This document shows, one piece after another, positions 491 through 22,437 of a stretch of 22,650 bases of DNA. The notes under the pieces are model-generated. The model did no database searches. It had not been told where the DNA came from and was given only the letters and a program-made list of their open reading frames with translations. Source of the stretch: a virus. Lineage: Duplodnaviria; Heunggongvirae; Uroviricota; Caudoviricetes. Each line of letters begins with the position of its first letter. Position 1 is the stretch's first letter. Position numbers and translations under genes: made by a program. Location of the stretch: the IMG/VR virus record IMGVR_UViG_3300048924_000203, positions 86,232-108,881 of that record. One strand, 5' to 3'.

Positions 491-508
491 ACGTGTGGTT
501 TGCATGAT
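487..508 (+). promoter_or_regulatory. Candidate promoter element, copy 1 (CTGCAC-N10-CATGAT)
   Basis: CTGCAC 487-492, CATGAT 503-508, then 7 nt to ATG 516; no Shine-Dalgarno. The -10 begins with C rather than T. Confidence 0.45.
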
Positions 509-515
509 GCCCGGT

Positions 516-992
516 ATGACTGACAGCGCCTTGGACACCACTGCACCCTCCGCCGCCGATCCTGTAGCGGCCCCGGCCCCGGTAGACGCCGCTACCACCC
601 TTCCCAGCGATGCCCCGACTGCAGAACAGCCGGCCGAGGATCCCGTGGAGGCTGCTAAGCGGAAGACCACCGAAAAGTGGCTGGCGGCCGAGACGGCATG
701 GAAGACCGCGTTCGACAAGGACTGGAAGTACGAACGCTACGAGTTCCACGGCGACCTCCTTGCCGTCCGCATCCCCAAGCAGGGCGCCCTGCTGGCCGTC
801 TCGATGGGCGGCGCCAAGTACGGGTCCACGGACGGCGGGCTCGGTGCCATGAACCAGTTCTGCAATCTGCACCTCGGCCCGGAATCCCGGCAGCGAGTGC
901 TGGACCGGATGATGAACCCCGACGAGACCGCCTACGGCGACTCGCCGATGGGTGATCTGTTCACGGCTCTGGGCAAGCTCTCCCCGGAGTAG
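516..992 (+). CDS. Tail assembly chaperone-like protein (158 aa; ORF track start 495, alternatives 504/507)
   Basis: Lies immediately before the tape measure gene; acidic Pro/Ala-rich N-terminus; 15/55 ungapped identities to the 16021 protein. Confidence 0.75.
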   Translation: MTDSALDTTAPSAADPVAAPAPVDAATTLPSDAPTAEQPAEDPVEAAKRKTTEKWLAAETAWKTAFDKDWKYERYEFHGDLLAVRIPKQGALLAVSMGGAKYGSTDGGLGAMNQFCNLHLGPESRQRVLDRMMNPDETAYGDSPMGDLFTALGKLSPE

Positions 993-1027: not shown

Positions 1028-4000
1028 GTGACGACCGCCGGGGCCATCAGAGTCGGCGTCGATATCGACGCAACCGGTCTCGGCGCCCGGCTCCACAGCG
1101 CCATCAGCTCCCAGCTCGCGCCCGTCATGGCGCAGCTGCGGTCACAGACCCAGGCCACCGGCAACGACTTCGGCAACCTCGCGCGCCGCACTGAGCTGTC
1201 CGCAACGCGCCAGGTCGTCGCGCTCCGCCGAGTCGAGCAGCAACTGCACAGTGTGCGCGACGCCGCGCTGCAGGCCCATGCCGCGCTGAACAGCCTGCAC
1301 GGCCCCGGGAACAACAGCGTCGGGCCGCTTGGCAACGGCGGCAACCTCACCATCAACCGGAACACCTACAACTACGACTACCGGAACTACTCGGTAACGA
1401 ACAACACCGTCAACAACTCGACCACCACGATCCACAACAACAGCGGCGGCGGTGGGGGCGGCGGCGGTGGTGGTGGAGGTGGCGGCGGGAACAACGGCAA
1501 CAACCGCCGCGGACTCTTCGGCGGCGGAGGCGTTGGCGGATTCCTCACTTCGCCAGGCGGCCTCGGTGTCCTCGGCCTCGGCGCCAATGCGCTCCCGGCC
1601 GCCACCCTCGCCGTCACCAACCTGCTCGGCGCCGTCCAGCAGCTCGTGCAAACCGGCTTCCTGCTGCCCGCAGCGTTCGGCGCTGCCGCCTCCTCGATAG
1701 GCACCGCGGTCATCGGCTTCAAGGGCATGGGCGAGGCCATCACGGCCATCAACAAGGGCATGGAGGAAGGCGCCAGCAAGGCCGACCTCAAGAAGATGGC
1801 CGCCGCGCTCAAGGACATGAACGGCAACGCGAAAGAGGTTGCCCTCACCGTCGCCACCGACGTGCTGCCCGCGTTCAAGAAGATCCAGCAGGACGTCGTC
1901 CAGCAGAACATGTTCGACGGCATCGCCGCCAGCATCACCACGCTGAAGGACAAGGCGATGCCGACGTTCGAGCGTGGGCTCGGCGGCATCGCCACGGCGT
2001 GGAACGACACCCTCAAGAAGGGCATGTCGGCCCTCGGCGATGACCAGAACCTGAGCCTGCTGGACCGGCTCTTCGGGAACACCGCGGAAGGCCAGAAGCG
2101 GGCCAACGCCGCCATCGCCCCGATCACGCACGCCATGGCTCAGCTAGCAGCCACCGGCAGCGAGTTCCTGCCACGGCTCGGCGACGCCATCGCGAAGGTG
2201 ATGACGCGGTTCGACAACTTCATCTCGAAGAACGCCGCGAACGGCAACCTCTGGCGCTGGATCGACGAGGGCCTCAACGGGATGCGTGCCCTCGGCAACA
2301 GCATCCTGAACATCGGGAAGATCTTCGCCGGCATCACGAAGGCCGCTGGCGGACTCACTGGCAGCCTGTCCGGGGACGGCGGATTCCTCGGCGGTATGGA
2401 GAAGCTCACCGGGCAGTGGGCTGACTTCATCAACAGCGCCGAAGGCCAGGAGAAGCTCGGCAACTTCTTCAAGGATGCGAAAGAGCGTCTCGGAGAATGG
2501 ATTCCGATTCTCGGCAACGTCGCCAAGGTGATCGGCGATGTCTTCGTAGGCCTGCAGCAGTGGGGCGATGTGCTGCTGCCGATCCTGTCGAAGGTGACGA
2601 GCGCGCTGTCGTCGATGCCGGGTCTGATCACGGCCGCGGTCACGGCGTTCGCCGGGTTCAAGACGCTGGGATGGCTCGCAGGATTACTCGGTGTGGGCGG
2701 CGGCGCGGGCGCTGGCGCTGGTGCTGGCGCTGCAGGTGGGCTGCTCGGCCTCCTCAGAGGACCACTGGGTGTAGGACTGGCCGGTGCTGGTCTCTTCACT
2801 GGCGGTGTCATGTCGTCGGCAGGTCCGGATGGTCCGGGCTGGGGATCGAGCCTGTCGACGATCGGCGGCGGCGCGCTGTTGGGCGGAGCGATCGGATCCG
2901 TAATCCCGGTGGTCGGTACCGCACTGGGCGCCGCGATCGGCGCCGGCGCCGGCGCCATCACTGTCGGCGTCCAGGCGCTCGTCGCGTCGATGGGCAATGT
3001 CGACAAGCCGCTGAACGACCTCACCGACAGCATCAGGGCCGCTGCCGCTGAGAACTGGAAGAACATCAAGAACCAGACCGGTCTGCAGGATGACCCGACT
3101 CCTGGCGTGAATCCTGGCCAGTCGTTCACCGGGCCGCGTCCGGTCGATGCGTTCGTGGTGACCGATCCCAACACGGGTCTTCCGGTTCCGATTGACCCCA
3201 ACAAGCCGAACGACCTCGGACGGTTGGGCCTGGGAGTCATCGACAACCCGCTGTCACGAACGGGTATCCCTGGGTGGGATTCGGGTTTCCCTGTCGACAA
3301 GGACGGGCGGCCCCTTGTCCGCACCGACAACACGGGACGGCCCCAGCCGAACGGCGGCCAAGACTTCACTGGCGGATTCGCGCCTGTCCCGACACCGTCG
3401 AACCCGTGGCCCGTGGCGGTCGTCAACGACCCGATGTCCGGCATCAACACTCCCGGATTGCCCGGGAACACGCTGGCGCCGAAGGACCTGGGCTCGCTGC
3501 TCGGCGGCGAAGCTCCGCCGACGCTGACCCCGAATCCAGCTGGCCCGGGACCGGCGTATCAGGCGACCCCGGCGACACCACCGCTGGCGCAGGGTCCGGG
3601 GTTGCCGAACAACTGGCCAGGTGGGGGAGGACCGCAGGCGCCGCTGCCTCCGGTCAAGGCCGACACCACGGCCGCGCAGGGCGATATCGACAAGCTCGCC
3701 ACGTCGATTCAGGGGCTCCCCAAGGGCGAGGTGGCGATCAAGTCTGACGACATCCCCAGGGTTAAGACGGACCTCGACAAGCTGAACACGCAGATCACGG
3801 ACGTCTCGAAGAACCAGATCATCGTCAAGGCCAACGATGACCAGGCCAAGACGGTGCTCGACAACCTGATCCAGTCGTATCAGGGCCGGTCGATCACGCT
3901 GAACGTCAACGCCGGTGGTGCCCCGGGCGTCCCCGCGGCACCAGGGCACGCCAACGGCGGAATCGTTCGTCGTGGATTCGACCAGGGTGGCTGGTACAGC

Positions 4001-7000
4001 GACGAGTGGCGGCGACGTCACGGGCTCGCCGGCGGAAACTTCAACCCCGGCGTGGCCATCGACACGTCTGGCACGATCGCTACAAATCAGCTGGTCGGCG
4101 GACTGATCGGCGATATGGGCGCCCCAGCGATCGACTACAACGACTACCTGGGCCTGGTCCAGGACAGCTACGGGCCGAACCCGTCGCAGTGGCGGATCAA
4201 CCAACCACACGGGGTACTACCCGGCTACTCGCCTGGCGTGGACAACCTGATGGTGCCGATGAGCGGCGGCGAAGGCGTCATCATCCCCGAGGCCATGAGG
4301 GCTCTGGGGCCGGACTGGTTGTACCGGCTGAACAGCCGCTTCCGCCCGGGTATCAGCCGATCTGGCTACGCGACCGGTGGCGTGGTCGGCGCCGACGGTG
4401 TACTCGGCGCACCCGACGACAGTGTGATCGGGCTGCTGACCCAGATCCGTGACTCCATCCAGGGCAAGGGCGGCGGCGCTTTGGCGACGACCGCGGACAA
4501 CACCACGACAATGGCGCAGGCGTTGGGCCCGAAGGCGAAGCCGTTCGGCGGGGACATCGGGAAGGGCGCGCTGGCCGGCGCCATCAAGGCACTCGGCGGG
4601 GACCCGAACCAGATGGACTGGGGAGGCTTCAACGGCGACGGCCAGCTCCTTGTCCCGAAGGGCATGACCGCTGGTGCTGGCGGCCAGCTGCTCGGCGGAG
4701 GCGGCAACCTGCCCATGCTGGCGCAGGTGCTGTCAGCGTTCGCCCGCTCCGGCAACGTCGGCGACCTCACCGGCTCCGGTCTGAACGTCAACAGCCCGGT
4801 CGTCACGGCGATCACGTCGGCCCGCAACAAGAAGACGGGCTTGGGCGACGACGCAATCGCCGGACTGGTACAGCAGGTGCTCACCGGTGGCGGCTACACC
4901 GGCGTGCTGGACTCGACGAACACCCCGCTGGTGAAGTCGTTGACACGGTTCCAACAGCAGCAGCTCACCGGCAAGGGTGGCGCGGTCGCCATGCCCGCAG
5001 GCGGGTTCGACGCTGCGCTGCTGTCTCAGGTACGGCCCGGCCAGTACTCCCAGACCGGCGCCGCCGACCTCACGAAGGGCCTCGCCGACTGCTCGTCCTC
5101 GGTTGAGGACCTCGTCAACCTCATGGACGGGATGCCCACCGGCGGCCGGGAGATGTCGACGGGCAACGCCTCCCAGTGGCTCACCAGCCGCGGCTTCGTG
5201 CCAACTGACGGTGTCGTTCCCGGCGCGATGAACGTCGCCTTCAACAGCGGCCATATGCAGGCCACCCTGCCCGACGGGACGCCGTTCAACTGGGGATCGG
5301 ACGCCGCGGCGGCACGGGGCGGCGTCGGCGGCAGCGGCGCCTTCGACCCAGCCTTGAACCAGCGGTTCTACCGGCCTGTCACCGGGATGCCGCTCGGTGC
5401 CGGACTCAGCGCTGGCATGGGAGCCAGCCCGCTGGGCTACTCCGGTGGTGGCCCGGTCCCGGTGTATATCGTCGACGGCCCGGGCGCCGGCGGGTTCGGG
5501 CAGCAGCTCGGCGGCCAACTGCTCGGCGACGCGCTCTCCGCGGCCGCACCGGCGGTCTCGGATGCTGCGGGCTCGATCATCACCGGCATCGACCAGGGCA
5601 CCCAGCTCGCACGCGACAGCACGAAGGACCGCCCTGCCGTGCGGACCGGCACGCTGATGAAGGAAGGCAACCCGCTCTCCGTCGCGGCGCTTGCCGGGTA
5701 CACGGTGCCGGACTTCACCCGCCAAGGCTGGAACGGGCAGGTGATGACCAACAGCGGTCCGGGCTTCAACGCCGGCGGGCAGATGATGTCCGACACCGCG
5801 TCGCTGATCATGCGAACCTTCACCGACACTCAGGCCGCGGCCGACGCCCGCCAGCAGCAGATGCTGTCCGTCCTGGACCAGATCAAGACGCAGCTGTCGG
5901 AGTCGGTGCTGAAGCCGATCATCCAATCGGCGGTCCAGTCGGCGATGGCGGCAGCCGGGCAGGCCGCACAGCAGGGCACCTCCGGCGGTGGGGGAGCGAT
6001 CCCCGGCCTCGCTGACGGCGGCGCGATCTGGGGCGGCACCCCGGGCGTCGACTCGGTGCCTCTGATGGGCATGCCCGGCGAGCACATGCTGACCACGAGG
6101 GATGTGTCGGCGATGGGCGGCCAGCGCGGCGTGTACGCCTTCCGGCAGGCGCTGCACCGCAACGGCGGGCTGCGGGGCTTCGCCGGTGGCGGCGGCATCG
6201 GCAACGACACTGTCGGCGCCGACTTCTTCGGTGTCTCTCAGGTGCCGGTCATCGGCGACATCATCAACCTGATCATGAAGATCCTGCTCAAGGTCATCGG
6301 CGTCGAGATCCAGGTGCGGGACACGATGAACCGGATGTCGGATGACTTCCGCCAGTTCCGCGGCGACTTCAAGGCATTCGACGCCAGCGGCCGGTTGATG
6401 AACGACACCAGCGGCCTGGTCGACCGGTCCGGGTCCAGCGAGGAAACCGTTGTGGCGGAGCGGGTCCGCATCTTCAAGCAGGTGCTCGAAGGTTTGGTCA
6501 AGTTCATCATTCAGAAGATCGTCATCCCCATCACGCAGGCGATCGCGTCGTCGCTGCTGCAGGCCGGCGCATCGGCGGCGGGCGGCGCGGCCGCCGGCGG
6601 CATCAACACGGTCGCCCCGGGAGCCGGTGGCATCGCGGGAAGCCTGATCACCAGCCTGATTTCGTCGGGCGGGCAGGCAGGCATCAACATCGGCGGCGAG
6701 ATCGCACAGATGATCGCCGGCGCCGCGACGGGACCGATCGTCGGCCTGCTGACAGACGGGTTCATGGGCATCTTCGGCAAGCTGCTGAACCCGATCCTGA
6801 CCGGCGGCATCGGCGGCCTGCTCAGCGCGTTCTTCCCGTTCCTTGCGTTCGATGACGGCGGCATGGCCAACGGCGTGGGCCTGTTGCCGAAGGCCACCGT
6901 CGAGCCGGAGCGGGTGCTGTCACCCCGGCAGACGAGCCTGTTCGAGGAGATGGTGCGCGCGAACTTCGGCGCCAGCGCCGCCAGCAGCAAGTCGGTCAGC

Positions 7001-7078
7001 GTCGGCAAGATCGTCATGCAGGGGACACAGGCCACTCCGGAGGCTGTGCGCCAAAGCATTCTGGACCTTCTGGAATGA
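1028..7078 (+). CDS. Tape measure protein (2016 aa)
   Basis: Longest ORF, Ala/Gly-rich, located between chaperone and minor tail genes; repeated G-[FYHL]-A-x-G-G motifs; DCSS...GH peptidase-like segment; C-terminal PERVLSPRQT motif typical of actinophage TMPs. Confidence 0.95.
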   Translation: MTTAGAIRVGVDIDATGLGARLHSAISSQLAPVMAQLRSQTQATGNDFGNLARRTELSATRQVVALRRVEQQLHSVRDAALQAHAALNSLHGPGNNSVGPLGNGGNLTINRNTYNYDYRNYSVTNNTVNNSTTTIHNNSGGGGGGGGGGGGGGGNNGNNRRGLFGGGGVGGFLTSPGGLGVLGLGANALPAATLAVTNLLGAVQQLVQTGFLLPAAFGAAASSIGTAVIGFKGMGEAITAINKGMEEGASKADLKKMAAALKDMNGNAKEVALTVATDVLPAFKKIQQDVVQQNMFDGIAASITTLKDKAMPTFERGLGGIATAWNDTLKKGMSALGDDQNLSLLDRLFGNTAEGQKRANAAIAPITHAMAQLAATGSEFLPRLGDAIAKVMTRFDNFISKNAANGNLWRWIDEGLNGMRALGNSILNIGKIFAGITKAAGGLTGSLSGDGGFLGGMEKLTGQWADFINSAEGQEKLGNFFKDAKERLGEWIPILGNVAKVIGDVFVGLQQWGDVLLPILSKVTSALSSMPGLITAAVTAFAGFKTLGWLAGLLGVGGGAGAGAGAGAAGGLLGLLRGPLGVGLAGAGLFTGGVMSSAGPDGPGWGSSLSTIGGGALLGGAIGSVIPVVGTALGAAIGAGAGAITVGVQALVASMGNVDKPLNDLTDSIRAAAAENWKNIKNQTGLQDDPTPGVNPGQSFTGPRPVDAFVVTDPNTGLPVPIDPNKPNDLGRLGLGVIDNPLSRTGIPGWDSGFPVDKDGRPLVRTDNTGRPQPNGGQDFTGGFAPVPTPSNPWPVAVVNDPMSGINTPGLPGNTLAPKDLGSLLGGEAPPTLTPNPAGPGPAYQATPATPPLAQGPGLPNNWPGGGGPQAPLPPVKADTTAAQGDIDKLATSIQGLPKGEVAIKSDDIPRVKTDLDKLNTQITDVSKNQIIVKANDDQAKTVLDNLIQSYQGRSITLNVNAGGAPGVPAAPGHANGGIVRRGFDQGGWYSDEWRRRHGLAGGNFNPGVAIDTSGTIATNQLVGGLIGDMGAPAIDYNDYLGLVQDSYGPNPSQWRINQPHGVLPGYSPGVDNLMVPMSGGEGVIIPEAMRALGPDWLYRLNSRFRPGISRSGYATGGVVGADGVLGAPDDSVIGLLTQIRDSIQGKGGGALATTADNTTTMAQALGPKAKPFGGDIGKGALAGAIKALGGDPNQMDWGGFNGDGQLLVPKGMTAGAGGQLLGGGGNLPMLAQVLSAFARSGNVGDLTGSGLNVNSPVVTAITSARNKKTGLGDDAIAGLVQQVLTGGGYTGVLDSTNTPLVKSLTRFQQQQLTGKGGAVAMPAGGFDAALLSQVRPGQYSQTGAADLTKGLADCSSSVEDLVNLMDGMPTGGREMSTGNASQWLTSRGFVPTDGVVPGAMNVAFNSGHMQATLPDGTPFNWGSDAAAARGGVGGSGAFDPALNQRFYRPVTGMPLGAGLSAGMGASPLGYSGGGPVPVYIVDGPGAGGFGQQLGGQLLGDALSAAAPAVSDAAGSIITGIDQGTQLARDSTKDRPAVRTGTLMKEGNPLSVAALAGYTVPDFTRQGWNGQVMTNSGPGFNAGGQMMSDTASLIMRTFTDTQAAADARQQQMLSVLDQIKTQLSESVLKPIIQSAVQSAMAAAGQAAQQGTSGGGGAIPGLADGGAIWGGTPGVDSVPLMGMPGEHMLTTRDVSAMGGQRGVYAFRQALHRNGGLRGFAGGGGIGNDTVGADFFGVSQVPVIGDIINLIMKILLKVIGVEIQVRDTMNRMSDDFRQFRGDFKAFDASGRLMNDTSGLVDRSGSSEETVVAERVRIFKQVLEGLVKFIIQKIVIPITQAIASSLLQAGASAAGGAAAGGINTVAPGAGGIAGSLITSLISSGGQAGINIGGEIAQMIAGAATGPIVGLLTDGFMGIFGKLLNPILTGGIGGLLSAFFPFLAFDDGGMANGVGLLPKATVEPERVLSPRQTSLFEEMVRANFGASAASSKSVSVGKIVMQGTQATPEAVRQSILDLLE

Positions 7079-16020: not shown

Positions 16021-16383
16021 ATGTATGACCCGCCCGCCGGCTATCAAGACTTCCTCGCCGACGCCGAAAACAACGACCGTGGCGACGGCCCGATGTACCC
16101 GCTCCACGTGGAGGGTGTGGGCACGATCCAGGCGCGCAAACCCATCCCCGGCAGTGCCGCGCCGTTGGGCGCGGCGGGCCGATCGAAGATCCCCGACCGG
16201 GAGAAGCTCGGCTATCTGAACCTGTTCGTGCGCAACCACATCGGCGCCGACCAGTACGAGCAGCTGCTGGAGCGGATGATGACCGATGACGCCCCGGCTG
16301 ACACGATGCCCCGGATCGTCGAGGCCATCACGACAAGGGGCACGGCCCGCCCTACCAAGCGGTCATCACACTCTGTGTGCTGA
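16021..16383 (+). CDS. Tail assembly chaperone-like protein, G-type (120 aa)
   Basis: Strong SD AGGAGG; paralogous to 516-992; ends GTARPT followed by a Ser-rich tail, as recalled for actinophage chaperones. Confidence 0.7.
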   Translation: MYDPPAGYQDFLADAENNDRGDGPMYPLHVEGVGTIQARKPIPGSAAPLGAAGRSKIPDREKLGYLNLFVRNHIGADQYEQLLERMMTDDAPADTMPRIVEAITTRGTARPTKRSSHSVC

Positions 16384-16679
16384 CCGCTCACCACTGGCGA
16401 CCGCTGCGGTCGAAGCTGCTGCTGGCCGGGATCGGTGACCCGATGGGCCTGCCGTCCATGCACTCTCTTTTGGACCTGACCGAGTCGGCGCTGACTGAGT
16501 CGATGTCCGCGGACCCTGAGGAAGGCAGCAAGAAGGTCTCGGAGTTCATCGACCAGCTGTACGCCCCGCCGGTTGAACCCGCCAAGGCCAAAGCCGGCTA
16601 CAAGGCTCCGCCGTCGTGGTGGACCGAAGGCAATTCGGACGACGAGTTTGACGCCGCGCAGCGCGCCGCTCCGCGCTGA
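16377..16679 (+). CDS. Tail assembly chaperone T-type ORF (probable -1 frameshift extension of 16021; frame open from 16302)
   Basis: Overlaps the upstream gene in the -1 frame, has no SD, and its GTG is buried in a 13-bp hairpin. Confidence 0.65.
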   Translation: MLTAHHWRPLRSKLLLAGIGDPMGLPSMHSLLDLTESALTESMSADPEEGSKKVSEFIDQLYAPPVEPAKAKAGYKAPPSWWTEGNSDDEFDAAQRAAPR

Positions 16680-16841: not shown

Positions 16842-17140
16842 GCCGCATGTACGTCCTGATGTCCGGCAACACGCCGCTGTCGGTGGCGGAGCGCCGCGAA
16901 CGGCTGTGTGAGCGGATGGCGGACTTCAAGGCAGAGGTCCAGTCGCACATGGAAATCGTGGAAGTCGAGGTACTTGGAATGTACGTGCCGAAGATCATGG
17001 ACCGGCTGATCGACCGAATCGCTGAGCGCGTCGCGCAGGAAGTCGCCAAGACGCTACCCGAGATCGGCGAGCACGTGGCCCAGGCCATCGTCGCGGAAGT
17101 ACTCGGCCGGCTGCCGTTCGGATCGGCGTTCAAGCGATGA
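16838..17140 (+). CDS. Pre-lysin protein, possible Ms6 Gp1-like lysin chaperone (100 aa)
   Basis: GTGA overlap upstream and ATGA overlap with lysin A; amphipathic helix LIDRIAERVAQEVAKTLPEI. Confidence 0.65.
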   Translation: MSRMYVLMSGNTPLSVAERRERLCERMADFKAEVQSHMEIVEVEVLGMYVPKIMDRLIDRIAERVAQEVAKTLPEIGEHVAQAIVAEVLGRLPFGSAFKR

Positions 17141-18702
17141 CCGAGAAGCTGTTGCCCTACGACCGTGCCGTGGTTGCGCAGGAGACGGGGTACTGGTGCG
17201 GGCCCGCCGCGACGCAGGTGGTGCTGAACTCCCGCGGCATCGTTCTCAGTGAGGCCGAGTTGGCCCGTCAGATCGGCACGACTGTCAACGGCACTGACTA
17301 CGTCGGCTTGATCGAACGGGTGCTGGACAACATCACCCCAGACGCCCGGTACACCTCGGTGTATATCGAGAACGACCCGCCGAGCCAGGCACAGAAAGAT
17401 GTGCTCTGGCGCAACATTGTTCGTTCAATCGACGCTGGCTACGGCGTGGTGATGAACTGGGTGGCGCCTCCGTCGAACTACCCGCGCGGCGTGAAGGGGA
17501 GTACCAGCCCGGCGTACGGCGGCGGCACGGTCTTCCACTACGTCGCCTGCATGGGCTACGACGACGAGGCACGTGCGCTGTGGATCGCCGACAGTGGATT
17601 CCGGCCGTTCGGCTACTGGATCAGCTTCGACCAGGCAGCGTCGCTGATCCCACCGAAGGGCTACTGCTACGCCGACATGATCGGCGTCGAACCGCCCACC
17701 GCCGACCTGCAGGCGGTGCAGGTGTTCGCGCAGTTGATGTCGCCGACGGCGCTGACCACCGATCGGCTCGTCGAACTGCTACCGGCTTACAGCCAGTGCC
17801 TGGCCGAGTGCGACTGCACCACCGCACCGCGGATCGCGATGCACGGCGCGCAGATTGGCCACGAATCGGTCGGCCTGCGGTACATGTTCGAGTTGTGGGG
17901 CCCGACTGCTGATCAGGCCGGCTACGAAGGCCGGATCGACCTCGGGAACACCCAGCCGGGCGACGGGTACCGCTTCCGTGGCCGCGGCCCGATACAGGTG
18001 ACCGGCCGGAGCAACTACACCGACCTTTCCGGGTGGGCCTACAGCGAGGGCCTCGTGCCGTCGCCAACGTTCTTCGTTGACGACCCCGACCAGTTAGCCA
18101 GCGACACATACGGATTCATCGGCGTCACCTGGTACTGGACCACTCAGCGACCGATGAACGACGCCGCCGATGCCCGCGACATCGTCCGAGCAACCCAGTA
18201 CATCAACGGCGGCCAGAACGGCATCGACGACCGCCGAAACCGATACAACCACGCCCTCTCGTTGGGCGACCAACTGCTGCAACTACTCGATCAGGGAGAC
18301 GAACTCATGGGCGTGAACGTGGAGCGGCTCAACCAGGCCGTCGACAAGATTCTCGGCGGCGGCACGATGCCCGCGCAGTGGCCATCGCGCGGAATGTTCG
18401 GCCCCGCAGCCGAACCCGCCAGCGGAGTCGACGACACCATCGGGATGCTGCTCAACACCGACGGCAACACGTGGAACATCGTGATGATCGTCGGCGCGCT
18501 TCTCGGCGTGGAACGCGACGTGCAGGCCATCAAGGACAACGCCGCCGGAAAGTTCCCAGCGGGGAGCTACGTCGCCGGCAACGAGTGGCTGCGGAAGCGA
18601 GCACAGGAGTTCGCGCAGAAGCTGCTGCCGCTGTGCGGGCTGCTGACCGCCGACGCGCTGAAGCCGAGCCAGGACATCACCGTCCACAACACGGGCGCAT
18701 AA
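17137..18702 (+). CDS. lysA: Lysin A: N-terminal C39-like peptidase + GH19 glycoside hydrolase + C-terminal putative wall-binding domain
   Basis: QETGYWCGPA...HYVA Cys/His peptidase pattern; AQIGHES...YRFRGRGPIQVTGRSNY...INGG GH19 pattern; C-terminal WPSR...MLLNTDGN segment. Confidence 0.92.
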   Translation: MTEKLLPYDRAVVAQETGYWCGPAATQVVLNSRGIVLSEAELARQIGTTVNGTDYVGLIERVLDNITPDARYTSVYIENDPPSQAQKDVLWRNIVRSIDAGYGVVMNWVAPPSNYPRGVKGSTSPAYGGGTVFHYVACMGYDDEARALWIADSGFRPFGYWISFDQAASLIPPKGYCYADMIGVEPPTADLQAVQVFAQLMSPTALTTDRLVELLPAYSQCLAECDCTTAPRIAMHGAQIGHESVGLRYMFELWGPTADQAGYEGRIDLGNTQPGDGYRFRGRGPIQVTGRSNYTDLSGWAYSEGLVPSPTFFVDDPDQLASDTYGFIGVTWYWTTQRPMNDAADARDIVRATQYINGGQNGIDDRRNRYNHALSLGDQLLQLLDQGDELMGVNVERLNQAVDKILGGGTMPAQWPSRGMFGPAAEPASGVDDTIGMLLNTDGNTWNIVMIVGALLGVERDVQAIKDNAAGKFPAGSYVAGNEWLRKRAQEFAQKLLPLCGLLTADALKPSQDITVHNTGA

Positions 18703-18705
18703 CCG

Positions 18706-19512
18706 ATGTCGCGCCACCTCGCCGTGGTGTTCCGCGGCACCGGCGGCATCGTCGGCCAGGACTACGTCAGCCGCGTCTGCCAAGGCGCGGGCGATCTCGT
18801 CGAAGAGTTCAACCCGCGCTGGCCCGCGACGATGGGTGGACTCCCAGTCGGCGCGGCCGGGAGCATCAGCGACAAGTCGATGCAGCATTCTGTCGCAATC
18901 GCTTTCGCTGACGCGCAGCAGTTGATCGATGCGAAGCTCGCGCTCGAACCGGACCGCGGCATCGTCGTCGGCGGCTACTCCGCTGGCGCCGTCGTGGCCT
19001 CGAAGGTGCGCGAGTGGGTGCTTCAGAAGTACCCGCGGAACTACGTGTGTTCGTTCAGTCTGGGTGATCCGACCCGGCCCGCCGGCGGCGCGTTCTACGC
19101 CGGCACCCCAGCCCCGGGCCGCGGCATCAGCTCGTGGCGGTTCGGCAACGTCTACGACTGGCGGCACTGCTGGCTGGCCAACCCGGGCGACATGTACACC
19201 TCGGTGCCGGACAACCACACCGGCGACATCATGCAGGACGTCTACGACATGGTCACGCGGTTCGAGCTCACCGATCCGATCGGCACCGCGAAGGCGATCG
19301 CGCAGAAGGTTCCCGAGATGGTGACCGGTGCCCTCACCGACCCGATCGCGGCGTTCCAGGCGATCAGCATCGCGACCGGATTCGTCGCGACCAACCCGCC
19401 GACGCTGCCGCACATCACCTACGAGTTCGCCGAAGTGTGGCCCGGCCAGACGTACCTAGGCCTGGCGACCCAACATGTCCGTGATTGGTCCAGCCGCGCT
19501 ATGGCGGCCTAG
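18706..19512 (+). CDS. lysB: Lysin B, cutinase-like mycolyl-arabinogalactan esterase
   Basis: G-Y-S-A-G nucleophile elbow, GDP motif, late H (PHITY); directly after lysin A. Confidence 0.88.
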   Translation: MSRHLAVVFRGTGGIVGQDYVSRVCQGAGDLVEEFNPRWPATMGGLPVGAAGSISDKSMQHSVAIAFADAQQLIDAKLALEPDRGIVVGGYSAGAVVASKVREWVLQKYPRNYVCSFSLGDPTRPAGGAFYAGTPAPGRGISSWRFGNVYDWRHCWLANPGDMYTSVPDNHTGDIMQDVYDMVTRFELTDPIGTAKAIAQKVPEMVTGALTDPIAAFQAISIATGFVATNPPTLPHITYEFAEVWPGQTYLGLATQHVRDWSSRAMAA

Positions 19513-19525
19513 GGAAAGGCACCTG

Positions 19526-19759
19526 ATGTTCACTCGTAAATGGTTCAAGGATGCCGCCGACCGCGTCGGATCCACCGCGCTGTTCGCGTTCCTAGGATAT
19601 CTGCTGTCGCTCGACCACTTCGACTTGTGGGCCGTCAACTGGAAGGCTGCCATCAACGCGACCGTCATCGCTGCCGTCGGCTCGCTGCTCAAGGCACTCG
19701 TTGTCGGTAAGGCCCCGATCGGAACGCCTGACTCTGCGACACCGGTCGATCTTCGATGA
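19526..19759 (+). CDS. Holin (r1t-like), 77 aa
   Basis: SD GAAAGG; MFTRKWFKDAADR N-terminus followed by two hydrophobic segments; located after the lysins. Confidence 0.8.
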   Translation: MFTRKWFKDAADRVGSTALFAFLGYLLSLDHFDLWAVNWKAAINATVIAAVGSLLKALVVGKAPIGTPDSATPVDLR

Positions 19760-20166
19760 TCGCCCGCCGCCGCGACTGGACCCCACGACTCGGCCACCGG
19801 TACCGACGCATCATCTCAATCCTGCTGGCTGCAACGCCTTTCGTCGCCGGTGCTGACTTCCTGATGGGAGAGCACGCAGAAACGTTGACCATCGTCGAAC
19901 GCACCCTCCCGACGGAGGTCTGGGGCGGTCTGCTGGTCCTAGCCGGCACGCTGGCCGCGCTCGGGTATTGGCTGCGCCTGCCTTGGGTATGCATCTTGGG
20001 ACTGCACCTGTCCGGGACACTGTTCGCCGCCCTGTCCGCCGGCATCGCGTGGGCCAGCATCGACGTTGAGGGTGGTTTCCGTGGCCCGTGGCTGTATCTG
20101 ATTGTGTCGCTAATGTCGTGGTTCGCAGCGTTGGGGTACGCAGACCAAGTTCAGGGGAAGTCGTGA
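19756..20166 (+). CDS. Membrane protein with about 4 TM segments (136 aa)
   Basis: ATGA overlap with the holin; four hydrophobic stretches after a basic N-terminus. Confidence 0.8.
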   Translation: MIARRRDWTPRLGHRYRRIISILLAATPFVAGADFLMGEHAETLTIVERTLPTEVWGGLLVLAGTLAALGYWLRLPWVCILGLHLSGTLFAALSAGIAWASIDVEGGFRGPWLYLIVSLMSWFAALGYADQVQGKS

Positions 20167-20600
20167 ATCAGCAAGCGCCCGATGGTATTCCGCCGCTGCT
20201 GTGGCTGGTGCTATTCCTCCTCGTAGGCCCTCCGGCACTGATGTCGAAAGCTGGTGCGAAGCTGCCAGGCTTTCTCGGCTGGGTCGGCCGTAAGTGGCAG
20301 GCCCGCAAAGATCTCACGCCAGAGGAACGGAAATCGTCAGCGTCGTACCGCGTTAGCCAGGCTGAAATCGCCCGTATGGCAGCCGATTACGCGCGAATCA
20401 GCGAGGACTACGAGGAAATGGTCGCTGCGAACGAGAAACGCGACAAGAAGATCGCGGTGCTCGAAGGCGAGATGACGAAGGAGAAGCGGATCCGTTGGGC
20501 CGCGATCGGCTATCTGCGGCAGGTGATCGATTCGCATCGGAAGCACGCACCGGAGTCCGCGATCCCCGACCCGCCTGAGCTGCTTGCTGACATTCTCTGA
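20163..20600 (+). CDS. Membrane-anchored coiled-coil protein (145 aa)
   Basis: GTGA overlap gives start 20163; one N-terminal TM (LLWLVLFLLVGPPALM), then a charged heptad region. Confidence 0.75.
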   Translation: MNQQAPDGIPPLLWLVLFLLVGPPALMSKAGAKLPGFLGWVGRKWQARKDLTPEERKSSASYRVSQAEIARMAADYARISEDYEEMVAANEKRDKKIAVLEGEMTKEKRIRWAAIGYLRQVIDSHRKHAPESAIPDPPELLADIL

Positions 20601-20665
20601 TCTGTCACCCCGTCGGCGCCCGGGTCGACTCTCCCGGCCGGGGCGATCGCCTACAGTGGCACCCC

Positions 20666-20833
20666 GTGACGGAACCTCATCGGCAGCAACGGCCGCGGAC
20701 TCGACCGCTAGCGGAGACGACGATGATTGTCCGGCCACACTGGTCGCTGATCCGCACCTTCGGTGACGACCAGCTCGCCGAAGCTGAGGCCTACGCCTCC
20801 GAGCATGGCTGCACCGTCGAAAAGCTGGGCTAG
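20666..20833 (+). CDS. Small hypothetical protein (55 aa; alternative ATG 20723, 36 aa)
   Basis: Open frame MTEPHRQQRPRTRPLAETTMIVRPHWSLIRTFGDDQLAEAEAYASEHGCTVEKLG; TACAGT 8 nt before the GTG; GGAG before ATG 20723; converges on the next gene without overlap. Confidence 0.55.
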   Translation: MTEPHRQQRPRTRPLAETTMIVRPHWSLIRTFGDDQLAEAEAYASEHGCTVEKLG

Positions 20834-20857
20834 CAGAGAGCCGCTTCTCCGCGAGAA

Positions 20858-21154
20858 CTATGGGTAGATGTGGTACTGGGGTTGTCCGATCGGAACAACA
20901 GGCCACGGTTCCGCCGGGTTGACTGGCCAGCACTTGCCATAGGCGGGGGTGACGCCCGCGATCTGCCCGTACTGACCGAAGTACGGCTGCTGGTTGACGC
21001 TCACGCACCGGTCCCACGTTCCATCAGGGCGGGGCTGGCTGTCGCAGTACATCGCGCCTAGGGCGTTCGTTTCGCACCCGGCCGATGCCGGCGCCGCAGT
21101 GACGCCACCGAGAAGTCCCAACGCCACCGCGATAGCCGCCCCCATTCGCATCAT
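20858..21154 (-). CDS. Secreted protein, CDGP-domain-like (98 aa)
   Basis: Signal peptide MMRMGAAIAVALGLLGGVTAAPASA; YCDSQPRPDGTWDRC resembles the mycobacterial CDGP(I)xPDGSWxRC motif; 4 Cys; TATGCT 7 nt before the ATG. Confidence 0.75.
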   Translation of the reverse strand: MMRMGAAIAVALGLLGGVTAAPASAGCETNALGAMYCDSQPRPDGTWDRCVSVNQQPYFGQYGQIAGVTPAYGKCWPVNPAEPWPVVPIGQPQYHIYP

Positions 21155-21267
21155 GGACGGGAGCATACGACCACGCTCAGGGACCCGGCAGGAGAACTGC
21201 CAGTAAGTGCCCAGGAATGACGGATTCGTCTGGCCGCAAGCAAGACGGTTCGGATACGGTGCGATTC
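21155..21267. promoter_or_regulatory. Divergent promoter region (secreted protein / integrase)
   Basis: - strand TATGCT (21167-21162), 7 nt from ATG 21154; + strand TACGGT (21255-21260), 7 nt from GTG 21268; neither gene has an SD. Confidence 0.5.
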
Positions 21268-22437
21268 GTGCCACGACAGCGGATGAAGCCTGGCGAGTAC
21301 GGGAAGATCACCACGAAGACCCTCAGCCCGAATCTCGTCGAGGCCCGGACGTACGTCCGGGACGATGACGGGCGGCGCCGCCAGGTCCGTCGCACGGGTC
21401 GTTCAGCTGAGGCCGCCGAGCGGACCCTCAAGCAGCACTTGAAGGCCCGGACGACGCCCGTCGAAGGCCAGTTGGTCACCGAGGTGACGACGCTCTCGGA
21501 GCTGTTCGAGATCTGGATCAAGGTCAAGGTTGCCGAGGATGACCTGAAAGCGCAGTCCGTCGGCACCTACACGCAGGCTTGGACCGCGTACGGGGACCGT
21601 CAGCTCGGGCAGTTGCGGATCAACGAGCTGCAGACCGCGAAAGCCGACCGGTATCTGAAGTCCATGACTGCGCGGTCGGGCGCCCTGACGTTGCGCAAGG
21701 TGCTCAAGGGCATGTACGCGCTGGCTGTCCGGTACGGGGTCGTCCAGATCAACCCGATCGAGGGTGCGCGGCCGGCCTCGGCCAAGAAGAAGCCTCCGGT
21801 CCCGATGGTGACGCCTGAGATTTATACGGAGGTCGTGGCGCACATCAAGGCGTACACGGCCGCGACGAAATCGGGGCCGCCCCGCGGCCGTTACCTACTG
21901 CCGTTCGTCGAGCTGCTCGCCGCCACCGGTGGTCGAACCAACGAGGTGCTGGCCGCGTTGTGGGAAGAGGTCGATCTGCTCGCTGATGCCAAGTCCCTGA
22001 CGATCTCCGGCACGTTGCTGGACTACGGGGCGGTGAAGGGGGAGGCGCCGACCCGGCAGGAGGAGCGGAAGAGTGGCGGCGCGGATCTCACGGTGCTGCT
22101 TCCGCCGACGGCAGTGGAATCGTTGGCGACCCTGTTCGGCATCACCGGCCCGACAGGCTTGGTGTTCAAGAACCGGGCCGGCGGTCAGATGTCCGCACAC
22201 AACATGCGGCGGGCGTTGCGCGCCGCGCTACCGGAACACCTGAAGTGGGTGCAGCCGAAGTCTTTTCGGAAGGCCACGGGCACGGTGGTGCGCGACGAGT
22301 TGGGCATCGAGGCGGCGCAGCAGCAGCTCGGGCATGCCCGGTTGTCGACGACGGAGAACAACTACGTGAAGCCGAAGACGGTCGGTCCGGATGCGCGCGC
22401 GGCGTTGGAGCAGTTCATGGGTGCTAAGCGAAAGTGA
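21268..22437 (+). CDS. int: Tyrosine integrase (389 aa; ORF track start 21217)
   Basis: MPRQRMKPGEYGKI N-terminus; catalytic pattern TGGR..E, K, K-S-F-R, LGH, Y near the C-terminus; adjacent to a tRNA 3' end. Confidence 0.93.
   Translation: MPRQRMKPGEYGKITTKTLSPNLVEARTYVRDDDGRRRQVRRTGRSAEAAERTLKQHLKARTTPVEGQLVTEVTTLSELFEIWIKVKVAEDDLKAQSVGTYTQAWTAYGDRQLGQLRINELQTAKADRYLKSMTARSGALTLRKVLKGMYALAVRYGVVQINPIEGARPASAKKKPPVPMVTPEIYTEVVAHIKAYTAATKSGPPRGRYLLPFVELLAATGGRTNEVLAALWEEVDLLADAKSLTISGTLLDYGAVKGEAPTRQEERKSGGADLTVLLPPTAVESLATLFGITGPTGLVFKNRAGGQMSAHNMRRALRAALPEHLKWVQPKSFRKATGTVVRDELGIEAAQQQLGHARLSTTENNYVKPKTVGPDARAALEQFMGAKRK

Follow-up and report, generated by a model that had tools for sequence, protein, structure and literature searches.

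The window analysed here makes up the last 22.6 kb of an IMG/VR virus record of 108.9 kb and covers the region for tail, lysis and integrase in a temperate actinophage (Table 1). Past the minor tail genes, about 9 kb from where the tape-measure gene ends, lies a tail assembly chaperone gene with a strong SD upstream (called G-prime for simplicity), identified by its Pfam family and by fold matches to annotated chaperones. It is overlapped in the -1 frame by an open reading frame encoding a domain of unknown function, DUF7240 (called T domain), which forms the C-terminal part of a 219-aa G-prime-T fusion if the two frames are joined. Both halves matched phrog_941 (233 positions) in the order in which they occur. 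The score of this match rose from 102 to 129 bits once the frame upstream of GTG 16377 was added, indicating that this stretch of the -1 frame is coding. In the structural model of the T domain (pLDDT 86) helix 1 comprises residues 2-13; a product started at GTG 16377 would miss the first 8 residues of this helix. Homologues of the genes occur in about 505-519 GenBank phage records, mainly of Mycobacterium phages of the Bclasvirinae (cluster B), but also of Gordonia, Tsukamurella, Nocardia and Rhodococcus phages and in one M. abscessus prophage. In all inspected records both genes were annotated as hypothetical, and split genes were never joined.

Further downstream, positions 17137-22437 hold an ordinary temperate-phage cassette of lysin A, lysin B, holin and integrase. 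At the other end, the ORF at 4-453 (G000 86193-86684), placed between the tail-completion genes and the first chaperone gene, encodes a lipoprotein-like product with a hydrophobic N-terminus and cysteines and had no Pfam or PHROG match.

Table 1. Features of the window and the evidence for their assignment.
Feature	Position	Strand	Evidence or remark
Stand-alone G paralogue (Phage_TAC_16), without T partner	495..992	+	PF23781, E 1.9e-19; phrog_1118 tail assembly chaperone
Tape-measure protein gene, presumed client	1028..7078	+	2016 aa; tblastn match with Dori gp24, which is annotated as tape measure protein
G-prime gene, tail assembly chaperone	16021..16383	+	120 aa, ends ...GTARPTKRSSHSVC; Pfam Phage_TAC_16 PF23781, E 1.9e-28
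Slip site CGC CCU	16348..16353	+	Z_ZZN tetramer C_CCU at 16350-16353; invariant in 54/54 + 8/8 split junctions
T domain, -1 frame, DUF7240	16353..16679	+	108 aa from Tyr; PF23888, E 4.6e-26
Spacer, slip codon to stem	16354..16358	+	5 nt, ungapped, constant length in 52 aligned junctions
Conserved RNA hairpin of about 12 bp, putative 3' frameshift stimulator	16359..16387	+	covariation
GTG within the stem, possible non-conserved internal start	16377..16379	+	homologues often without a nearby start
Lysin A (C39 peptidase + GH19)	17137
Cutinase-type lysin B	18706
r1t-type holin	19475
Tyrosine integrase	21217

Proposed slip site and hairpin at the junction

Every coordinate of the sequence-only reading of this locus was confirmed: positions 16345-16356 read GCC CGC CCT ACC, the -1 frame has no stop from 16302 onward, and the -1 fusion has a length of 219 aa. 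We also agree that an X_XXY_YYZ heptamer is absent: only CGC CCU is invariant, and the base 5' of CGC is C, G or T. CGC CCU was kept in 62/62 distinct split junctions, 41 of which were recovered by protein search alone. Within this set, CGC CCT AC was found in 54/54 distinct junctions, 33 of them protein-selected; the 21 found by motif scan are circular for site invariance and were counted apart. All eight distant loci chosen solely by T-domain homology showed the -1 offset together with CGC CCT, followed by AC, TT or AT, i.e. by Tyr or Phe in the new frame. Since only CGC CCT is constant while the next bases vary, the invariant core is C_CCU behind an Arg codon. CCT is a rare codon in the phage (19/257 Pro codons), and CGCCCT sites occur 85 times in the 108.9-kb genome. 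A motif scan of genome contigs yielded mainly chance matches, and single-protein or alignment searches of genome contigs found no related loci.

Conservation changes frame at the slip site. The 0-frame tail past the site is variable and 3-23 aa long, and the -1 frame, whose offset is present in all split loci, is conserved from the Tyr on; several loci lack a start codon of its own near the junction. The stop of the split loci ranges from +9 to +69, and the stem stays fixed relative to CCU. In four Acadianvirus-like loci (L007, L026, L031 and L053) the 0-frame stop follows the site almost directly (CGC CCT ACC TAG), which could cause an extra pause. Anti-SD duplexes 5' of the site were mostly -5 to -6 kcal/mol (-6.6 in the window, AAGGGG), values that are partly set by Gly/Trp codons.

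The hairpin has the arms previously described: AGCGGTCA (16358-16365) pairs with TGACCGCT (16381-16388) and CACAC (16367-16371) with GTGTG (16375-16379), with a single T-C mismatch and a TCT loop, and both the TGA of ORF 16021 (16381-16383) and GTG 16377 are located within the stem. Its outer A-U pair is not conserved. The spacer had been given as 1-4 nt and regarded as too short; counted from CCU (16351-16353) to the conserved stem (16359-16370 paired with 16376-16387) it is 5 nt, and the concern is removed by reading the site as a Z_ZZN tetramer. The hairpin was more stable than dinucleotide shuffles (z = -4.17; 0/200 as stable), and 2% of synonymous-codon shuffles folded as well. None of the other 85 CGCCCT sites in the genome is followed by a hairpin as strong (-19.0 kcal/mol here, next -14.4), and it is among the top 1.7% of the 40-nt windows of the whole stretch, the most stable local hairpin being located elsewhere, at 16141-16190 within the chaperone ORF (-28.5 kcal/mol per 40 nt).

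The sequence-only reading had suggested following slip-site conservation and stem covariation through homologues; the site was invariant and the stem covaried. In the ungapped alignment of 52 junctions, 86% of the cells were paired over 18 tested pairs and nine pairs had changed on both sides. The covariation score of 0.246 was above 500/500 shuffles (0.119) and compares with at most 0.073 in slid registers. Pair 16361-16385 was C-G in 32, G-C in 19 and unpaired in one of the 52 junctions, the exchange being synonymous in the -1 frame. On a protein tree built without the junction residues each side of this pair changes 10-11 times and both change jointly 11 times, so that the changes are concerted and repeated. 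Another stem pair is U-G or U-A (31 versus 21), which fits an RNA helix of the sense strand. In locus L252 a 13-bp stem of unrelated sequence is found at the same 5-nt offset. Two observations count against a frameshift: the stems are weak in the split loci L130, L191 and L254, and the stem is kept in the fused genes of Dori and L109, where it is useless for a shift and where a recent fusion is a possible reason for its retention. In the fused L001 the stem is lost.

A second helix between CGCC of the slip site (16348-16351) and GGCG (16396-16399), about 45 nt downstream, would enclose the hairpin and is pairable in nearly all homologues. It was not counted, as its columns are near-invariant and largely forced by Trp-Arg codons. 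A terminator role for the hairpin was rejected, the stem being inside coding sequence with no U-tract after it.

Fused relatives and gene order

Dori gp35 and Mask gp34 are single genes of 232 aa with the junction GTARPY encoded by CGC CCC TAC, one C longer than in the split form. This in-frame reading supports the junction GTARPYQAVITL proposed from the sequence. L001 (CGG CCC TAC) and L109 (AGG CCC TAC) are independent fusions; altogether the fusions occupy three separate branches and parsimony placed three changes on the tree. Two further fused genes use the Pro codon CCG. As fused genes use CGG, AGG and CCG, the codons are fixed only in split genes, and the Arg before the junction is conserved in the fused proteins. 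A search for longer homologues found none, which reflects a limit of sensitivity, since a full-profile search of 1.84 billion representatives gave many: among the 150 matches listed, 73 were long, 60 had an in-frame chaperone half, and the junctions of the long matches included 37 RPY and 11 RPF. The joined protein is thus a normal form. In Dori (L002:1170-1215) another frame still contains the old short ending P-T-S-R, stop, stop, which hints that a single base was inserted recently.

The structural model of a natural fusion shows two helical-rich domains connected by a short GTARP linker; it was used for a coarse fold search only, its alignment being misaligned at the junction. In BFVD the model matched a 219-aa protein of Phendrix annotated as tail assembly chaperone (E 4.4e-4) and, more weakly, proteins of SilentRX and Lilbeanie and Mu FS-gp41. 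Searches of the PDB gave nothing clear (best Z 4.6, none with E <= 0.001). For the split gene of the window the predicted tryptic junction peptide is GTARPYQAVITLCVLTAHHWRPLR (GSARPYTAVINLALMAAHNWR in B1 phages), with GTARPTK as its 0-frame counterpart.

Two TAC_16 paralogues, strongly diverged from each other, are present in the window and in all five other genomes tested, whether split or fused. The first paralogue is found immediately ahead of the tape-measure gene and lacks T in the window, in Dori and in MiniBoss, and no second DUF7240-type partner was seen beside it; the second, with T, follows the minor tail genes. The same arrangement of a displaced pair and a stand-alone upstream paralogue was found in cluster B and in other genomes checked. 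The position between the major tail gene and the tape-measure gene, in which the pair is not located in the window, is taken by it in L252 and L255: in L252/L253 and L255 the split pair directly precedes the tape-measure gene, which is the G-T-H order of lambda. Because some relatives have the pair in this place, we regard DUF7240 as the T part of a lambda G/GT-type system; the sequence-only reading had not recognised the two genes as such a pair. L257 (2521-3516) represents a third architecture, with a stand-alone G and, behind it, a fused form; both lie upstream of the tape-measure gene, and several small opposite-strand genes separate the fused form from it. Bulk G may come from the upstream copy and GT from the displaced one; the short product of the latter would then not be needed, and fusion could occur repeatedly. 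By analogy with lambda, T would link the tape-measure protein, coated with chaperone, to the major tail protein.

Proposed mechanism and alternative explanations

The overlap geometry, the invariant site, the covarying stem, the fusions with the same junction and the G-T-tape-measure order of some relatives are read directly from the sequences. The interpretation that we set beside them, with a probability of roughly 0.88, is that a programmed -1 ribosomal frameshift yields the long (GT-type) form of the tail assembly chaperone. Most ribosomes would terminate at TGA 16381 and release the 120-aa G-prime. A minority would pause when the 12-bp hairpin, 5 nt past CCU, meets the mRNA entry channel, where a stem that begins 5 nt beyond the A-site codon is located, the hairpin thus acting as putative stimulator. 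tRNAPro(GGG) decodes CCU by wobble and CCC fully, so that a slip would improve its pairing: the tRNA would exchange its G-U wobble on CCU for full Watson-Crick pairing with the overlapping CCC, and the 219-aa fusion with the junction GTARP-YQAVITL would result. By analogy the efficiency would be low, under a few percent. That the shift takes place on the ribosome, which tRNA slips and when are parts of the mechanism that we infer. The CCT-to-CCC slip itself, already put forward in the sequence-only reading, is supported by the invariance of the site in split homologues together with the covarying stem and the natural fusions.

Translational coupling would account for the locus differently: the hairpin would mask the second start, terminating ribosomes would melt the stem and reinitiate, and G and T would be separate proteins. 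Stop and start are indeed together in the stem of the window, GTG 4 nt before TGA, and TGATG, GTGA or TTGA overlaps occur in many relatives. The TGATG stop-start overlap within the stem of many cluster B members is the usual signature of coupling and counts against a frameshift; it leaves room for a minor separate T product. However, the junctions of TPA2, GodPhather, L023, L070, L077, L130, L191 and L207 have no nearby start, and the stem is locked to CCU while the stop shifts. In TPA2, L070 and L191 the first 40 codons contain no start at all, and in L014, L023, L077, L130 and L207 the first one comes at codon 23-36. In addition, the Y-x-A-V...L stretch before the start hardly varies and makes up helix 1, and the invariant rare CCT codon would be left unexplained. 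We therefore consider coupling very unlikely. Reinitiation at GTG 16377, which had been offered as the alternative to a frameshift, does not hold as a general mechanism, because eight loci have no start close to the junction and the position of the stop varies, but may serve as a side route. Transcriptional slippage, in which RNA polymerase inserts one C in the CCC run, would agree with the natural fusions examined, whose difference is a single additional base within or next to the C run. Yet the conserved hairpin is 3' of the site and untranscribed as the polymerase passes, the 5-nt distance is a ribosomal spacing, and a run of three C is far below the length of known polymerase slippage tracts; this explanation is hardly credible.

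Another ribosomal route could lead to the same product, with a Pro-tRNA pairing out of frame on CCC after CGC or with a slip of CCU in the P-site. The junction peptide would be identical, and the 5' Arg codon is normally read by a wobble (inosine) tRNA, similar to CGA_AAG hexamers (PMC5009743). On the other hand, the 5-nt spacer fits the tetramer geometry, and CGC is the sole Arg codon ending in C. The conserved Arg and the needed C explain the invariance of CGC and no tRNA-specific role is required, which makes such a route rather improbable. A real frameshift might also serve another function, the displaced pair chaperoning the tail tip or the fibres instead of tube polymerisation on the tape-measure protein. 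This would be in line with the location of the pair among minor-tail and DUF7172 genes in the window and in most relatives examined and with the separate, very diverged chaperone in the canonical slot. The possibility appears small to us given that L252 and L255 have the pair immediately in front of the tape-measure gene and L257 ahead of it, that the upstream paralogue was seen without a second DUF7240-type partner and that the fold matches are annotated tail assembly chaperones.

A natural -1 shift at C_CCU, driven by the hairpin, is probably the G/GT frameshift that had seemed to be missing from cluster B and many related actinophages; gene duplication would have hidden it after the minor tail genes, and the family would have switched repeatedly between frameshifted and hard-wired forms.

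Relation to known recoding systems

The chaperone frameshift of lambda gpG/gpGT was reportedly described by Levin in 1993 and by Xu, Hendrix and Duda in 2004, along with its conservation in long-tailed phages. The locus resembles this system in that a chaperone gene is overlapped by a -1 ORF, the predicted short and long products share a common N-terminus, and the pair is located directly before the tape-measure gene in some relatives. In contrast to lambda, the site is a C_CCU tetramer instead of a heptamer, a strongly covarying hairpin is present 3' of it, and the pair follows the minor tail genes with a stand-alone second G in the canonical slot. The lambda frameshift is conserved in long-tailed phages (review PMC5009743). 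Two genome announcements of B1 phages stated that no programmed frameshift was found (PMC10793310, PMC12352053); in Jiraiya, a phage of the second announcement (PMC12352053), the slip site and the 5' arm of the stem are present between genes 38 and 39, which contradicts these statements. The site is not included in the listed backward motifs of PRFect. It would represent a natural slip motif outside both these motifs and heptamer-based finders, and other chaperone frameshifts may be overlooked likewise. The proposed role would provide a function for two 'hypothetical' genes (e.g. B1 gp39/gp40) in about 500 sequenced phage records and for Pfam DUF7240.

Tetramers of the Z_ZZN type are known from IS3-family elements, B. 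subtilis cdd and IS1222 (A_AAG, U_UUC), where a single tRNA moves from ZZN to ZZZ (PMC4066793, PMC5009743). At the present locus cognate re-pairing is available at C_CCU (16350-16353) and the covarying 12-bp hairpin provides the 3' structure 5 nt downstream, as at those sites. The slipping codon follows an Arg codon, like that of CGA_AAG hexamers, where the 5' codon matters (PMC5009743); the difference is that a proline codon would slip here. Sharma et al. (PMC4066793) assayed all 16 tetramers in E. coli, placing the IS3 pseudoknot 5 nt downstream, and C_CC.U was one of six that shifted at least 4x above background with the 3' structure at this distance. In the same study tetramers shifted only weakly, at 0.26-5.6% even when followed by the IS3 pseudoknot, and C_CCU was near the low end, values obtained in E. 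coli and not in mycobacteria. The common tetramers of an IS survey include A_AAG, U_UUC, U_UUU and A_AAA. In the literature searched, which comprised few subscription papers and no community forums, C_CCU was found only in synthetic constructs, and neither this site nor a natural -1 shift at C_CCU was found to be described. The Listeria phages PSA, A118 and A500 have +1 shifts at CCC_UGA / CCC_U (PMC5009743). There tRNAPro slips on CCCU in phage structural genes, as proposed here, but with CCC in frame and in the +1 direction, whereas here CCU is in frame, the proposed shift is -1 and a stem follows.

The PRFect paper (PMC10885494) mentions phages in which a frameshift is replaced by separate short and fused chaperone genes. 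Dori, Mask, L001, L109 and L257 correspond to them in combining a stand-alone G with a hard-wired G-T fusion. The family forms a natural series (frameshifted, fused, tandem and displaced) that bears on why the G:GT ratio matters and when recoding is dispensable. It differs from the phages with separate and fused genes in that frameshifted and hard-wired members alternate within a single family, with at least three interconversions on the tree.
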